From positions 94,010 to 158,009 of the forward strand of contig CAYUUR010000002.1 in the NCBI GenBank assembly GCA_964448075.1: a stretch of DNA of 64,000 bases, read 5' to 3'. Each line of letters opens with the position of its first letter. The stretch's first letter is position 1. The position numbers and the translations under genes are program-made. This DNA comes from an uncultured Candidatus Saccharibacteria bacterium (GTDB lineage Bacteria > Patescibacteriota > Saccharimonadia > Saccharimonadales > CAYUUR01). The notes below the pieces were generated by a model, which ran no database searches, was not told the DNA's origin, and worked only from the letters and a program-made list of their open reading frames with translations. Shown piece by piece: positions 5,443 to 63,326 of this stretch.

Positions 5443-6123
5443 CTACTGAAGGATAACACTTTTGAGAGATTCTGGTGTCAGATTAGCCATGGCGTGAGCG
5501 TTTTTAATGTCATAGGTTCCAACTTTTATCCGCCTCAAATCAGACATATACGCGCCAGTGGCAAGCATTTCACCGATGTCGCGCACTAAAGAACGAATAT
5601 AGGTACCGCTCGAAACATGGGACGTAAACTTAACAAATGGAAAGTCGTATGACACTTCCGTAATAGCATGGATGGTTACTGTACGTGGCTCCATTTTGAC
5701 TTCCTTACCCGCGCGAGCAAGCTTGTACGCTCGTTGACCGTTCACCTTGATGGCGCTGAAAGCCGGTGGAGTTTGCTGAATCTCACCAACAAAAGACTGT
5801 AAGGTCTGTTTTATTTCCTCAATCTCCGGTCTTCGGTCTCCAGTCTGAGTTTTCTCACCCTCTTCATCATCCGTTGTACTCGTCTCGCCAAGCTTCATCG
5901 TCACTTCATATACTTTGTCGAGTTTAGAGAACTCCTCGGCGCGTTTACAGTAACTTCCCAGGACAACAATCATGAGACCTGTCGCTAATGGGTCGAGTGT
6001 GCCGGTGTGCCCTACTTTGGGCTTCTTGAGCCCCGTTTCACGCTTCACCTGGCCTCGAACCTTAGCCACGACGTCAAAACTCGTCCAGCCTTTTGGCTTA
6101 TCTATAAGCAGAATTCCATCCAT
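5443..6123 (-). CDS. truB: tRNA pseudouridine(55) synthase
   Basis: MDGILLIDKPKGWTSFDVV N-terminus and the GHTGTLDPLATGLMIVVLG catalytic-Asp motif. The start at 6123 has no obvious SD (see findings). Confidence 0.9.
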   Translation of the reverse strand: MDGILLIDKPKGWTSFDVVAKVRGQVKRETGLKKPKVGHTGTLDPLATGLMIVVLGSYCKRAEEFSKLDKVYEVTMKLGETSTTDDEEGEKTQTGDRRPEIEEIKQTLQSFVGEIQQTPPAFSAIKVNGQRAYKLARAGKEVKMEPRTVTIHAITEVSYDFPFVKFTSHVSSGTYIRSLVRDIGEMLATGAYMSDLRRIKVGTYDIKNAHAMANLTPESLKSVILQ

Positions 6124-6145
6124 TAGATTCTACTGTACCACTGAC

Positions 6146-6218
6146 AAGGGAAAAGAGCAGCCCGAGAGACGAATTCATTTCGTCCCCGGCGCGACGAGAA
6201 AAACCGTAGGTTTGTCTC
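6146..6218 (+). repeat. copy 1 of a ~75-nt structured interspersed repeat
   Basis: AAGGGAAAAGAGCAGCC...GACGAA-ttcat-TTCGTC...GAGAAAAACC-gta-GGTTTGTCTC. Alignable end to end with 34697-34771 (reverse complement) and 63165-63241. Confidence 0.85.
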
Positions 6219-6228
6219 TGTTATGAGT

Positions 6229-6278
6229 CTCGTCCAGCCTTTTGGCTTATCTATAAGGAGTAATCCGTCGTAGTTCAT
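6229..6278 (-). pseudogene. displaced truB 5' fragment (ancestral start region)
   Basis: The minus strand reads ATG AAC TAC GAC GGA TTA CTC CTT ATA GAT AAG CCA AAA GGC TGG ACG AG = MNYDGLLLIDKPKGWT. Nucleotides 6229-6257 are identical to 6080-6108 inside truB. It sits 15 nt after the upstream gene's stop, with AAGG about 13 nt upstream. Confidence 0.65.
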
Positions 6279-14958: not shown

Positions 14959-15374
14959 CTGCTCCCTCCATCCTTAATTGGTAGATGTTCTATTTCGATT
15001 GGTGTCTTTAGTTTTTTTGCTATGTCAGCGAGGTTCAGATCCAGAAATTCATAACTAAAACCTTGCTCGGAGGCTGGAGTCGCATAGACTATTCTGTCTA
15101 TCTCTGCCCAGGCTGCACAGCTGAAGCACATCAAGCATGGCTCGTGGCTGCCATACATAGTGCCACCGTTAAGATTGTGGTTGCCTATCTTTTTGCAGGC
15201 TGCCCTGATCGCAGAAGTCTCGGCATGCAGGGTAGGATCATGTTCTTCGTGAACGTGATTGTGCTCAACAGCAAGCACTTCTCCATTTCTCACAATTACC
15301 GCTCCGAAGTTTCTTGGTGCTTGCTGCTCGTTACCCTTGTCTATTGTCATCTGCAAGTAATCTTGGTCGGTCAT
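14955..15374 (-). CDS. CDA-fold zinc deaminase (TadA/guanine-deaminase-like)
   Basis: HAETSAI ... PCLMCFSCAAWA (H(A)E / PCxxC). Start set at MTDQDY (ATG 15374), forming an ATGA overlap with the upstream stop. Confidence 0.8.
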   Translation of the reverse strand: MTDQDYLQMTIDKGNEQQAPRNFGAVIVRNGEVLAVEHNHVHEEHDPTLHAETSAIRAACKKIGNHNLNGGTMYGSHEPCLMCFSCAAWAEIDRIVYATPASEQGFSYEFLDLNLADIAKKLKTPIEIEHLPIKDGGSR

Positions 15375-33988: not shown

Positions 33989-34630
33989 ATGATTATGTGT
34001 ATGAATCAAGTTACTCCCCCGGACGGCTCAGACCCGTACGGCTTTATCCTTAACGACCCACCAAAGAAAAAACGCGCCTTGTTGCCCCAGGGCAGCTCCA
34101 AAAAGCAACGATTAATCATTATGGCTGGCGTGGCAATAGCTGCGCTAACGCTGTTTATACTCATTTTTTCGCTTATTTTTGGTAATCGTGGCGACAGCGT
34201 CAAAAACATTAAGATGGTCGCCGCTCAGCAACAAGAGATTATTCGTATCGCACAGTTAGGTGAAAAACAAGCTCGCTCCGCCAAAACACAAAGCTTTGCC
34301 ATCAGTACCAAGCTATCTATCACCAGTTCGCAGCAGCAAGTTTTTGCTTACCTTACCAAGAAAGACCAGATGCCAAAAGGCAAAGAGCTCGGGCTTGCCC
34401 AGAGCAGCAAGAACGACACAATCTTGCAAACAGCCACGGATAACGGCCAGTTTGATGAAGTCTTTGAAGAGACCATGACGACCCTTTTACAGAGTTACCA
34501 GAAGAGTCTATCCAAGTATTACGACAGTGCTTCAAGCGCAACGCAGAAACAACTCCTCCAAGATGCCTACGTCCAGGCCAAACAGCTGACCACTGAGCAA
34601 TCCGCCGAAGATTCTACAACTACACCCTAG
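33989..34630 (+). CDS. single-pass membrane-anchored hypothetical protein
   Basis: LIIMAGVAIAALTLFILIFSLIF TM segment followed by a Q/S-rich helical domain. The start could be ATG 34001. Confidence 0.5.
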   Translation: MIMCMNQVTPPDGSDPYGFILNDPPKKKRALLPQGSSKKQRLIIMAGVAIAALTLFILIFSLIFGNRGDSVKNIKMVAAQQQEIIRIAQLGEKQARSAKTQSFAISTKLSITSSQQQVFAYLTKKDQMPKGKELGLAQSSKNDTILQTATDNGQFDEVFEETMTTLLQSYQKSLSKYYDSASSATQKQLLQDAYVQAKQLTTEQSAEDSTTTP

Positions 34631-34696
34631 CTATTTAGCTACTAAATCATACGAAAGGCGGATGAATCCTTGGATTTCTTCGCGGCTTCGCCTTAT

Positions 34697-34771
34697 GAGA
34701 CAAACCTAGCGGTTTTTCTCATCGCGCGGTGTGTCGAAATAAATTCGTCACGCCGGCTGCTCTTTTCCCTT
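34697..34771 (-). repeat. copy 2 of the ~75-nt structured interspersed repeat
   Basis: The reverse complement reads AAGGGAAAAGAGCAGCC...GACGAAtttatTTCGAC...GAGAAAAACCgctaGGTTTGTCTC. Flanked by 44-bp direct repeats at 34638-34681 and 34776-34819. Confidence 0.85.
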
Positions 34772-35086
34772 GCTCGCTACTAAATCATACGAAAGACGGA
34801 TGAATCCTTGGATTTCTTCCCAGGGGAGCTGACCACTGAGGATGATGGTATTCCAATGTTTTTTGTTGAGATGATACCCGGGCAAGACCGTTTCGTACTT
34901 CTCACGCAAGGTCGTCGCCAATAGCGGATCGCATTTGAGACTAATCCGTACTGGGTTGGTTTTTTCTGGAATGAGCGCGAACATCTTGTCGTTCACTTTG
35001 TATACTGCTACGCCCTCACCAAAAGGATAATCAAGCACCGCGTTTGGCATGCTCAGTAGATATTCCTCTACTGTCTTATGATCCAT
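34748..35086 (-). CDS. MmcQ/YjbR-family protein (3' end altered by repeat insertion)
   Basis: MPNAVLDYPFGEGVAVYKVNDKMFALI ... LNKKHWNTIIL pattern. The last 7 codons (SKGKEQPA) are encoded by the inserted repeat. Confidence 0.75.
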   Translation of the reverse strand: MDHKTVEEYLLSMPNAVLDYPFGEGVAVYKVNDKMFALIPEKTNPVRISLKCDPLLATTLREKYETVLPGYHLNKKHWNTIILSGQLPWEEIQGFIRLSYDLVASKGKEQPA

Positions 35087-51362: not shown

Positions 51363-52142
51363 TTATAAAGTACGGGCTTGCGAGTCAGTTGCTGTGGTTA
51401 CTTCATGCGTCATAAGGTGTTCACCTGCTTGTTCGTTTGTAAGTCTCATGCGACTTTCTGGCGTTGGTACAGGATAAGCGCTAATGATTTTCTCAGTGTC
51501 TGGGTCAAGAATCATTCGTAGTGTTATCGACGCATGTGCATCAATCAGCGGCGCTTCTCCGTAGACTTCGATCACCTCACCGTGGCTGCTGGCTACACGC
51601 TTTTCACTGGTTACATCACGACTACCGTAGGCTGCTTCAATTGTTTTCAGCACTGCAAGGGAATCATATTCTTTTGGGTACATAACATTCTTGGTGTTAA
51701 TAATTGTTGGTTCATTGGTTTGTGGATCGATATGCCAAGTTTTCTTTGGTTTTCCATTAATGACCACTCGGGCTTTGTAAGGCTCAAATGGCCTTTCGGC
51801 AAATTCACTTCGGGCGCGAGAGTTTGCTCCATCTAGATGAGATCTATCAACATGGGTCAGACCATCAGAAATGCCCGCTTCATCAAGTACCGCCACCGAA
51901 GTTTCATGATGAAAACCCTGAACCATTTTTTCTCCCGTGTCTGATTCCAGCTGTTCACCTACAAGTGCGTGCATTAACCCATCGCGCCCTGTTTCTGAGT
52001 CGTAATAGAACATGTCAATTAATCCAGATTGTTCAGCAAACTCGTAATCTGTACCGAGCAGTGCGCGTAACTTCAGCTCACGCTGCGCATCAACAGGGGT
52101 TTCAAAGTCAATTTGTTGGGGTGGTCGCTCTATGGTTGTCAT
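51363..52142 (-). CDS. bacterial EndoU-like nuclease domain protein
   Basis: The C-terminal 185 aa contain, in order: GFHHETS ... NGKPKKT ... NVMYPKEYDSLAVLKTIEAAYG ... GEVIEVYG ... EKIISAYPV. This follows the pattern G(G)H ... K ... (S)TxFPxxW/Y-s...i..a ... I.TaYP of bacterial EndoU toxin domains. Confidence 0.55.
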   Translation of the reverse strand: MTTIERPPQQIDFETPVDAQRELKLRALLGTDYEFAEQSGLIDMFYYDSETGRDGLMHALVGEQLESDTGEKMVQGFHHETSVAVLDEAGISDGLTHVDRSHLDGANSRARSEFAERPFEPYKARVVINGKPKKTWHIDPQTNEPTIINTKNVMYPKEYDSLAVLKTIEAAYGSRDVTSEKRVASSHGEVIEVYGEAPLIDAHASITLRMILDPDTEKIISAYPVPTPESRMRLTNEQAGEHLMTHEVTTATDSQARTL

Positions 52143-62638: not shown

Positions 62639-62950
62639 ACAGTCGGCGAAAGGGAGGGGTAGCGCACATCGGCAGCCGTCCTCGGAGTAAACTCCTGTGG
62701 GCGGCTTTGATGACCGCACCATCGGTTCAGTATTTACTAAAGTAAATCCGTCCGAGGGTTCAAATCACTCAACAAGATGAAATGCATCAGCGAGCCGAGG
62801 CGTTTCGTCTTGGCGGAAGGGGAGGGATGCGCTTCGCTTGCACGGATTTCACTGCTCGGTACAAGATTCCTGCGCTGCTCAATCCTGTGCGAACCCCTTT
62901 TGCCTTGGGCAAAAGACAGGGTTCGAATCCTTCCCTGTTTCGATAGAAAC

Positions 62951-62980
62951 AAAAAGACCTTGCCAAAGCGAGGTCTTTTT
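62951..62980. terminator. bidirectional intrinsic terminator downstream of tRNA-Ser
   Basis: aaaaagaccttgc-caaa-gcgaggtcttttt: GC-rich 8-bp stem embedded in complementary A5/T5 runs. Confidence 0.65.
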
Positions 62981-62985
62981 CATCC

Positions 62986-63077
62986 TGGCGGAAGGGGAGG
63001 GATTCGAACCCTCGGTATCGGTTGCCCGACACAACTGTTTTCGAGACAGTCCAGTTCAACCACTCCTGCACCCTTCC
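62986..63077 (-). tRNA. tRNA-Ser (anticodon CGA), class II with long variable arm, CCA encoded
   Basis: Folded by hand: acceptor GGAAGGG/CCCTTCC, anticodon arm ACTGT-CTCGAAA-ACAGT, long variable arm, T arm GAGGG-TTCGAAT-CCCTC, discriminator G, CCA. Confidence 0.9.
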
Positions 63078-63164
63078 GTAAGGTAAATCATAGCACAAAT
63101 ACACTAGTATTTTACTCTGTAATATGATAGGATTACCCCTGTTGTATTCGTTTCCATTCTACGG

Positions 63165-63241
63165 AAGGAAAAAGAGCAGCCCGAGAGAAATGTATTTCAT
63201 TTCCCCGGCGCGATGAGAAAAAACCATCAGGGTTTTGTCTC
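63165..63241 (+). repeat. copy 3 of the ~75-nt structured interspersed repeat
   Basis: AAGGAAAAAGAGCAGCC...GAAATG-tattt-CATTTC...GAGAAAAAACC-atcag-GGTTTTGTCTC. Ends 8 nt before tRNA-Arg. Confidence 0.85.
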
Positions 63242-63249
63242 ATTACCTC

Positions 63250-63326
63250 GCACCCGTAGCTCAGCTGGATAGAGCGTTGGCTTGCGGAGCCAAAGGTCGT
63301 AGGTTCGAATCCTGCCGGGTGTACCA
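63250..63326 (+). tRNA. tRNA-Arg (anticodon read as GCG), CCA encoded
   Basis: Folded by hand: acceptor GCACCCG/CGGGTGT, D arm GCTC-AGCTGGATA-GAGC, anticodon arm TTGGC-TTGCGGA-GCCAA, T arm GTAGG-TTCGAAT-CCTGC, A73-CCA. Close to the E. coli tRNA-Arg backbone. Confidence 0.85.

Follow-up and report, generated by a model that had tools for sequence, protein, structure and literature searches.

A small structured repeat of Saccharibacteria, its apparent insertion at gene termini and its long flanking duplications

The 3' end of a yjbR/mmcQ-like gene in the 64-kb stretch of DNA analysed here (hereafter, the window) carries a 94-nt insert between two 44-nt direct repeats. We interpret this structure, with a probability of roughly 0.6, as a genuine and recent insertion of a small, non-coding, non-autonomous and Saccharibacteria-specific element that duplicates its target; the mechanism of insertion is inferred rather than demonstrated. 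The genomes of Saccharibacteria and other CPR bacteria are tiny and densely packed and are thought to be poor in mobile elements, and to our knowledge almost nothing is known about gene expression in the phylum. The family to which the insert belongs occurs across the Saccharibacteria class, and appears to be still active because its flanking repeats are perfect in many species. The duplications of 20–90 bp far exceed those of typical bacterial repeats and, taken with the apparent absence of a transposase, point to an undescribed route of integration; being tightly linked to tRNA and ribosomal-protein genes, the element is also a candidate for a regulatory or processing RNA. Its lifestyle would suit a genome with little spare DNA, as it re-supplies the gene end, is translatable in operons and is hidden in leaders cut by RNase P. 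The family also calls for caution in the annotation of CPR genomes, where copies yield truncated or extended gene calls and pseudo-fragments.

Results and discussion

An insertion at the 3' end of yjbR

The two copies of the repeat, GCTACTAAATCATACGAAAG(G/A)CGGATGAATCCTTGGATTTCTTC, are identical at 43 of 44 positions, start 138 nt apart and form the longest direct repeat of the window (Table 1). The distal copy translates as EEIQGFIRLSYDLVAK followed by a stop, and the copy attached to the gene body as ...YDLVASKGKEQPA and a stop, in which EEIQGFIRLSYDLVA runs on into the insert as SKGKEQPA-stop. A sequence-only reading of this DNA had described these repeats and both translations, all of which prove exact, and had proposed that a repeat present elsewhere in the window had inserted into the yjbR terminus with the reading frame kept open. 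The frame is indeed open, giving a read-through protein of 112 aa whose stop comes from the insert. The insertion itself is borne out by a covariance-model match within the insert (75.9 bits, E 7e-22) and by empty alleles in relatives.

Those empty alleles came from the comparison that the sequence-only reading had suggested as a check. The closest YjbR orthologs (P0001–P0003, 91–92% identical) end in ...YDLVAK or ...YDLVAGK. Seven loci whose YjbR is likewise 91–92% identical (L121–L124 and L125–L127) have a single 44-mer region and end in ...YDLVAK/AGK-stop, which is the empty site. Their synteny is that of the window (RNase T, YjbR, convergent gene, DnaG), with 10–14 nt between the yjbR stop and the convergent gene. 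Of 80 further metagenomic yjbR loci, 78 lack the element, which is present at the yjbR end in one (L147) and at another place in the locus in one (L138). The same reading had named, as one finding that would refute it, orthologs that natively end in ...ASKGKEQPA and also carry the downstream 44-mer. No such ending occurs in any of the 120 best YjbR homologs, and this, with the existence of empty sites, excludes a native gene tail. An assembly artefact is excluded as well, since the exact 112-aa read-through YjbR and a base-identical insertion region are found in two independent Logan assemblies, SRR16481186 and SRR16481187. The observation at yjbR is thus confirmed as real, and its interpretation as an insertion is supported.

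The window has no spacer between the native yjbR stop (TAG) and the opposite-strand stop of the convergent gene, so that an insertion there is tolerable only if both gene ends are preserved. A 14-nt direct repeat without mismatches, AGCTGACCACTGAG, encloses the insertion region as a whole, at 34584–34597 and 34827–34840; the end of the convergent gene contains one copy, the other precedes the proximal 44-mer by 7 nt, and both strains have the repeat. The chance expectation for a match of this type is about 0.001 in 800 nt, and the repeat has no explanation.

Table 1. Positions in the window of the element copies, their flanking repeats and the reading frames that they affect.
Feature	Position	Strand	Basis
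Proximal 44-nt copy, joined to the yjbR body; encodes EEIQGFIRLSYDLVA	34776..34819	-	Repeat search and translation
Inserted 94-nt segment: leader GAGC, core element, 3' tail	34682..34775	-	Missing from empty sites L121/L123/L125/L126; identical in L001/L002
Leader GAGC, 4 nt; overlaps the covariance-model match by 2 nt	34775-34772	-	
3' tail AGGCGAAGCCGC with GGC-GAA-GCC mini-hairpin	34693-34682	-	
Copy B, core two-hairpin element: 5' purine tract AAGGGAAAAGAGCAGCC, variable hairpin P1, linker GCGCG, conserved hairpin P2	34694..34773	-	Covariance model, fold, family covariation
Distal 44-nt copy; with 34631-34637 (AAA TAG) the displaced native yjbR end ...YDLVAK-stop	34638..34681	-	Translation; same as native end of closest orthologs
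yjbR/mmcQ ORF; final 7 codons and stop supplied by the insert	34748..35086	-	Pfam YjbR 3e-28
Copy A, antisense to truB, just past its start codon	6144..6221	+	Covariance model, 85 bits
Copy of the 41-nt duplication attached to the truB body (37/41; partner 6229-6269)	6080..6120		
Distal 41-nt copy with native truB start (MNYDGLLLIDKPKGWT)	6229..6269		Empty alleles L210/L211 start MSYDGLLL
51-codon upstream ORF: distal TruB N-terminus and reverse-complemented element	6123..6278	-	
Copy C, in the 5' leader of tRNA-Arg(gcg) (63250-63326), without flanking duplication	63163..63244	+	Covariance model

A family of two-hairpin elements

The covariance model finds three copies of the element in the window (A, B and C; Table 1), and the two-box motif GAGCAGCC-N20-34-GAGAAAAA is found three times there versus none in 100 shuffles. 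A pattern scan with one genome per species places the element at a minimum of 118 loci, nearly all of them under titles that name Saccharibacteria. Viral contigs gave no matches, which excludes a phage-borne element. A known RNA family is also excluded: searches of Rfam 15, small self-cleaving ribozymes and riboswitches included, returned only two tRNAs in the window at gathering thresholds and no match in the region 34560–34900 at E <= 10. No description of the element was found in the full-text literature, and the family is apparently undescribed. One further stretch of the window, ACAAGGGTAACGAGCAGC at 15322–15340 on the minus strand, resembles the element in its 5' box alone (covariance-model E 0.39) and is probably a chance match.

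The core of about 78 nt has the consensus (T)AAGGGAAAAGAGCAGCC–P1–GCGCG–P2, with P2 reading ATGAGAAAAACC-GTA-GGTTTGTCTCAT, and is often followed by a mini-hairpin, GGCGAAGCC or GCGAAGC; the short 3' tail is specific to the sub-family. The purine tract is single-stranded, and P1 has a 3-bp base, a conserved 1x1 mismatch, a stem of 7–8 bp and a loop of 5–6 nt. The mismatch, at the fourth base pair of P1, is A.C in 76 of 123 copies and behaves as a conserved mismatch, not as a wobble. All four Watson–Crick pair types occur at each position of the P1 stem, the sequence varying and the pairing being kept, and P2 is a 12-bp hairpin conserved in sequence. A plain MAFFT alignment of all copies misaligned P1, and a hand-anchored covariance model was built instead. 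In the resulting alignment of 121 copies both helices covary strongly, with 94.3% of cells paired and 406 double-sided changes, compared with 113 +/- 14 after shuffling; slid controls are 40–57% paired. The pairing figure is somewhat inflated by the fitting of the alignment to the model, and the same compensation is visible in the raw sequences.

Across copies, the A-run of the 5' purine tract and the A/T-run of P2 vary together in length (13/17 vs 0/101, Fisher p = 3e-14), a statistic inflated by shared ancestry within sub-families. This association suggests, from sequence comparison alone, that the 5' tract may form a triplex or an alternative pairing with P2. The folding strand is undecided: counts of wobble pairs point to the forward strand (54 vs 25), and single-sequence energies to the reverse strand (z -5.2 vs -2.4 for isolated copy B).

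Two kinds of atypical copy were noted. At L041:1317-1436, L128:759-875 and L209:~1090-1130, the P2 loop or the P1–P2 linker contains an extra GC-clamped hairpin of about 39 nt (GGGGCCCCC...GGGG), which looks like a second, smaller insertion nested in the element. At L005:495-700, on the minus strand, a copy has a 23S rRNA fragment on its 5' side and a fragment resembling the C-terminus of a PcrA/UvrD-like helicase on its 3' side; either the contig is chimeric or the copy is inserted within an rRNA intervening sequence.

Long and variable duplications at gene termini

The truB gene of the window offers a second insertion with which that at yjbR can be compared. The sequence-only reading had drawn this parallel, which holds for the long duplication, the location in a gene terminus and the open reading frame; the insertion sits at the 5' (start) end of truB, however, and not at the 3' end, and the repeat, given as 29 nt, is in fact 41 nt long with 37/41 identities, 29 nt of it perfect. 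The TAA stop of the 51-codon upstream ORF overlaps the ATG of the real truB (TAATG). The insertion is common to the window, L209 and L213 (TruB 90–92% identical) and absent in L210 and L211 (82%), and both repeat copies carry lineage-specific bases. The truB repeat is the more diverged (37/41 vs 43/44 at yjbR) and the yjbR insertion is absent at 91–92% YjbR identity, which agrees with the truB event being the older of the two; the family has thus been repeatedly active in this lineage. In L213, the apical half of P1 is wholly different from that of the window copy at 6144–6221 (alignment A6) despite 92% TruB identity; judged from the aligned sequences only, this swap of the apex would imply gene conversion between element copies within a genome.

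Across the family, about 20 of the 124 listed copies have significant flanking duplications, which range from 20 to 88 nt and are perfect in L054 (50/50), L060 (48/48), L062 (44/44) and L061 (42/42). The distal repeat starts 0–11 nt from the 3' end of the element in every duplicated case, and the unit period is 116–177 nt, mostly 116–149. The duplicated sequences are mutually unrelated, and their lengths vary between copies, even at one gene. That unrelated duplications of 20–88 nt flank copies at many different genes rules out a single att sequence, as the sequence-only reading had argued. That reading had also suggested testing whether duplicated length and insertion in a terminus hold for all genomic copies, and neither does: the length is not fixed, and most copies lie in pre-tRNA leaders or between ribosomal-protein genes. 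Neither a cut-site motif nor microhomology was found at the junctions.

Between the proximal repeat and the core lies a leader that in L060, L061, L062, L053, L050, L028 and copy A is homologous to the displaced terminus, diverged in sequence but with its coding preserved. Both copies in L060 encode PLEKL-stop with codons that differ in 4/5 positions, and its leader is closer to the native end of another species (L054) than to its own. The two MsrA N-termini of L053 differ at synonymous sites only, across AIFAAGCFWGV. The YjbR ends of L050 are of the short-tail and the long-tail type and include Ser encoded by TCA vs AGC, and the 88-nt duplication of L028 is about 80% identical, its proximal copy having Arg at an otherwise invariant Trp. 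In L062, L036 and L052, the leader supplies the ribosome-binding site. The perfect repeat blocks coincide with the conserved motifs PWEE, DKPKGWT and GCFWG. Insertions at one and the same gene end recur in different lineages, with junction positions that differ, and the tail AGGCGAAGCC is common to all five yjbR-site elements. The element tail ends in ...GGCGAAGCCGC, and GAAGAAATCC is the sequence that a circular or tandem junction would join to that tail.

The diverged, coding-preserving leaders are not what a simple staggered cut of fixed length followed by neutral decay would leave. The pattern of perfect and diverged blocks could instead reflect a spare terminus, brought from a previous host gene, that integrates by homology and each time newly duplicates the target. 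Alternatively, the duplications could be old; gene conversion would then keep blocks of at least 29 nt uniform, and distal copies would be renewed through recombination with empty alleles. For the cases with perfect repeats we favour the spare terminus, and the choice remains undecided; a comparison of L028 and L050 with about 90 orthologs included no close relatives and brought no resolution.

Target duplications flanking copies at many unrelated sites would also be left by a MITE moved in trans by a DDE transposase with long, variable staggered cuts. Direct repeats of 17 to several hundred bp are known in the IS1634 group and of 24–29 bp in the IS1202 group; these groups resemble the element in their long direct repeats and differ from it in being autonomous, with a DDE transposase and inverted repeats. 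The element lacks both defining features of a MITE. Terminal inverted repeats are lacking, since the ends of the unit (AAGGGAAAAG... and ...GTCTCAT) are unrelated, neither end of the core (AAGGGAAAAGAG... and ...GGTTTGTCTCAT) is an inverted copy of the other, and inverted repeats occur solely as the arms of the internal hairpins P1 and P2; the target duplications, at 20–88 nt, are neither short nor of fixed length. A variable, non-conserved leader and tail, moreover, separate the duplication from the conserved core, with leaders at several loci showing homology to the displaced gene terminus. No transposase was found in the window, and about 1 Mb of loci contained no extended, autonomous version of the element. 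We consider a MITE of this kind highly unlikely. More broadly, MITEs, Correia/NEMIS, RUP, ERIC and the Rickettsia palindromic elements are, like the element, small, non-coding and multi-copy with conserved secondary structure, and MITE-type repeats are likewise scattered beside and inside genes and tolerated in transcribed and even translated regions. Their duplications are fixed at 2–10 bp, whereas those of the element are long and variable without terminal inverted repeats, and they have neither a variable leader that regenerates a terminus nor a strict orientation and spacing to tRNA genes. We know of no partner transposase for the element.

Integrases that target gene ends yield an identity block and a replacement terminus, as when phage 21 and e14 enter icd. 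The identity blocks and diverged synonymous termini of L050, L053, L060 and L028 are typical of such integration, and the element has in common with tRNA/tmRNA-targeting integrases, phage 21 and e14 that the gene is left intact. The element might then be the remnant of a site-specific integrative element whose repeats are attL and attR cores and whose proximal terminus is an element-borne replacement. The yjbR insert, however, is only 94 nt and encodes nothing (inserts compared with such elements are 94–110 nt here), unrelated repeat pairs enclose the same 78-nt core at many genes, repeat length and junction are not fixed, junction positions vary between lineages at the same gene, and there is no integrase in the window. 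A remnant of this kind is effectively refuted; a recombinase that acts in trans and recognises P2 remains possible. More generally, an att-type integrative element should have one conserved att core in all insertions and encode its own integrase; the duplicated sequences here are unrelated between sites, the insert encodes nothing and the window has no integrase.

Two further candidates were rejected. REP/BIME/REPIN sequences, which are mobilised by RAYTs, are extragenic imperfect palindromes of 20–40 nt with a conserved 5' GTAG and no target duplication; the element has another consensus and a 78-nt two-hairpin unit, along with long duplications and a location in coding termini. A diversity-generating retroelement would give adenine-specific mismatches, and those observed are not (one G/A at yjbR; C/G, A/T, T/A and A/G at truB); nor is there a reverse transcriptase in the window.

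A possible route of integration

In the reading we prefer, that of an inserted element which duplicates its target, integration duplicates 20–90 bp of target DNA and leaves the distal repeat joined directly to the fixed 3' end of the element. The variable leader on the 5' side gives a replacement stop codon in 3'-end insertions, or a replacement ribosome-binding site and start in 5'-end insertions. We infer a mobile intermediate that would be single-stranded (RNA or ssDNA) and whose 3' end would be defined; on its 5' side it would bring along a variable extension from the donor locus, and this extension would anneal to the homologous gene terminus. The enzymes would presumably be those of host recombination and repair, with no dedicated transposase. 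A homology-anchored INTERMEDIATE whose 3' end is fixed is supported by the homologous leaders, the match between L060 and L054, the differing junctions at shared gene ends and the shared AGGCGAAGCC tail.

Several points stand against this proposal. Neither an intermediate, an enzyme nor a source copy has been identified. The yjbR copy of the window has a leader of only 4 nt and so does not itself show a foreign terminus. Ancient duplication combined with gene conversion (in blocks of at least 29 nt), or patchy recombination with the empty alleles of other strains, could account for the same pattern. Finally, the link with tRNAs and highly expressed genes may mean that the element is primarily functional and not selfish.

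The search for proteins was limited to the 68 window ORFs of at least 90 aa, among which Pfam reveals no transposase, integrase or reverse transcriptase. Nuclease-related matches among the window ORFs are confined to Fpg, PolA and a weak EndoU-like domain; the last, at 51363–52142 on the minus strand, is a weak match to bacterial EndoU nuclease (E 4e-8) with no link to the element. No autonomous insertion sequence with the same ends was found in the 64-kb window, in about 1 Mb of related loci or in viral contigs, complete genomes being outside the scan.

In its long, variable duplications, precise 3' end and variable 5' side, the element is reminiscent of target-primed insertion by eukaryotic non-LTR elements and SINEs. 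It differs in that no reverse transcriptase or endonuclease was found, no copies are truncated at the 5' end and there is no A-tail, and we know of no bacterial precedent for SINE-like retroposition. It remains a tentative idea, and on present evidence an unlikely one, that the family is a new class of bacterial mobile element in which a structured RNA of about 80 nt, first transcribed as the leader of a pre-tRNA or mRNA, moves through a single-stranded intermediate with a fixed 3' end and is integrated by host enzymes alone, through homology-anchored priming or recombination, carrying a spare terminus with it. If this were true, the spare gene terminus would both address the element to the same gene in other lineages and repair the gene it interrupts, and some members of the family would have been domesticated in Saccharibacteria to serve in the leaders of tRNA and ribosomal-protein transcripts.

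Genomic settings of the copies

A same-strand tRNA gene follows 33 of the 125 listed copies at a distance of 2–12 nt from the element (21–31 nt from the GAGAAAAA box), compared with a single opposite-strand case, and 23 of 32 tRNA-linked copies have a strong -10 hexamer 19–50 nt upstream of the core box AAAGAGCAGCC. This spacing and the upstream -10 box make the element part of the pre-tRNA 5' leader. Copy C of the window belongs to this group, and its position before tRNA-Arg(gcg) is also occupied in L046, L047 and L069. Where a protein gene in the same orientation lies directly downstream, it is mostly a highly expressed one, encoding S7, S17, S14, L16, L13, S9, L10, L4, S3, EF-Tu, EF-Ts, SSB, DnaK, GroEL or ClpB; eight of these assignments (S7, S17, S14, L16, L13, L10, EF-Tu and SSB) are confirmed by Pfam.

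Among the listed copies, about 22 in forward orientation lie upstream of such genes within mini-ORFs of 33–40 codons, situated between ribosomal-protein or chaperone genes and always in one constant frame, whose stop overlaps or abuts the next start. In five reverse copies, that at truB included, an upstream ORF traverses the element in reverse complement and terminates at the real start. Genes that start next to the 5' end of the element and point away from it are ordinary ones and encode TpiA (three cases), MsrA (two), MurB (two), TruB and Maf. The remaining copies, outside tRNA leaders and mini-ORFs, are at gene termini. Protein-gene neighbours, when pooled, show no orientation bias. A fixed orientation relative to replication is excluded, as GC skew is uniform across the window while copies lie on both strands.

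Survival of only those insertions that leave both genes intact would explain the three settings in which copies are seen: gene termini with duplications, in-frame coupled mini-ORFs and pre-tRNA leaders. We infer that copies survive only where they are harmless, RNase P trimming the leaders, ribosomes reading through in operons and the duplication restoring gene ends. The reverse orientation may be excluded before untranslated tRNAs because it ends in a hairpin and then CUCUUUUCCCUU; it is predicted to act as a transcription terminator wherever it goes untranslated.

These settings raise the question of whether the element is instead a functional cis-acting leader RNA of tRNA, ribosomal-protein and chaperone transcripts, the yjbR copy being a stray by-product of a duplicating process. 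It could serve as a processing or stability signal, as a put-like processive antiterminator, or as a sensor working through alternative pairing of the 5' purine tract with P2. The strand-specific placement before tRNAs with its -10 box, the nature of the downstream genes, the conservation of the tRNA-Arg(gcg) position in four genomes, the covariation of both helices, the tracking of the P2 A/T-run by the 5' A-run and the preference of wobble pairs for the transcribed forward strand would all fit such a role. Copies A and B do not, however: B lies between convergent genes and A is antisense to truB, so that neither can serve a downstream gene. Nor do the absence of orientation bias among pooled protein-gene neighbours, the absence of the element at yjbR in most relatives and at truB in some, without visible consequence, or the lack of an Rfam match, even at E <= 10. 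Function and mobility are, in any case, compatible with each other. A primarily cis-acting role seems to us rather improbable.

The coupled mini-ORFs recall the MIRUs of Mycobacterium tuberculosis, which Supply et al. in 1997 reportedly described as intercistronic operon repeats with a small ORF overlapping the flanking genes. Like MIRUs, the element lies between cistrons in operons, with a small overlapping ORF and translational coupling preserved; this feature is seen in 22 forward and five reverse copies, including the TAATG of copy A. MIRUs differ in being tandem minisatellite units, which the element does not form, and in having no target duplication, conserved hairpins or tRNA link, and the resemblance is functional only. 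The element is best filed as a small non-autonomous bacterial repeat with unusually long and variable duplications, regeneration of gene termini and residency in tRNA leaders.

Two minor observations concern the tRNA genes. A C-rich motif, CCCCTGTT or CTCTGTT, occurs in the 60 nt upstream of tRNA-linked copies (for example at 63125–63150 in the window, and in L013, L066, L077 and L103). In many Saccharibacteria it recurs at tRNA promoters, just downstream of the -10 box or sometimes just upstream, and might represent a conserved sequence that is initially transcribed or regulatory. Downstream of tRNA-Ser(cga) (62986–63077) and its terminator hairpin, at 62800–62990 on the minus strand, lies a degenerate second tRNA-Ser-like copy that shares the last 29 nt of the tRNA (26/29), has GCGAAGC in place of the T-loop and receives no ARAGORN call. 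An integration or duplication event at the 3' end of the tRNA may have left this copy behind.
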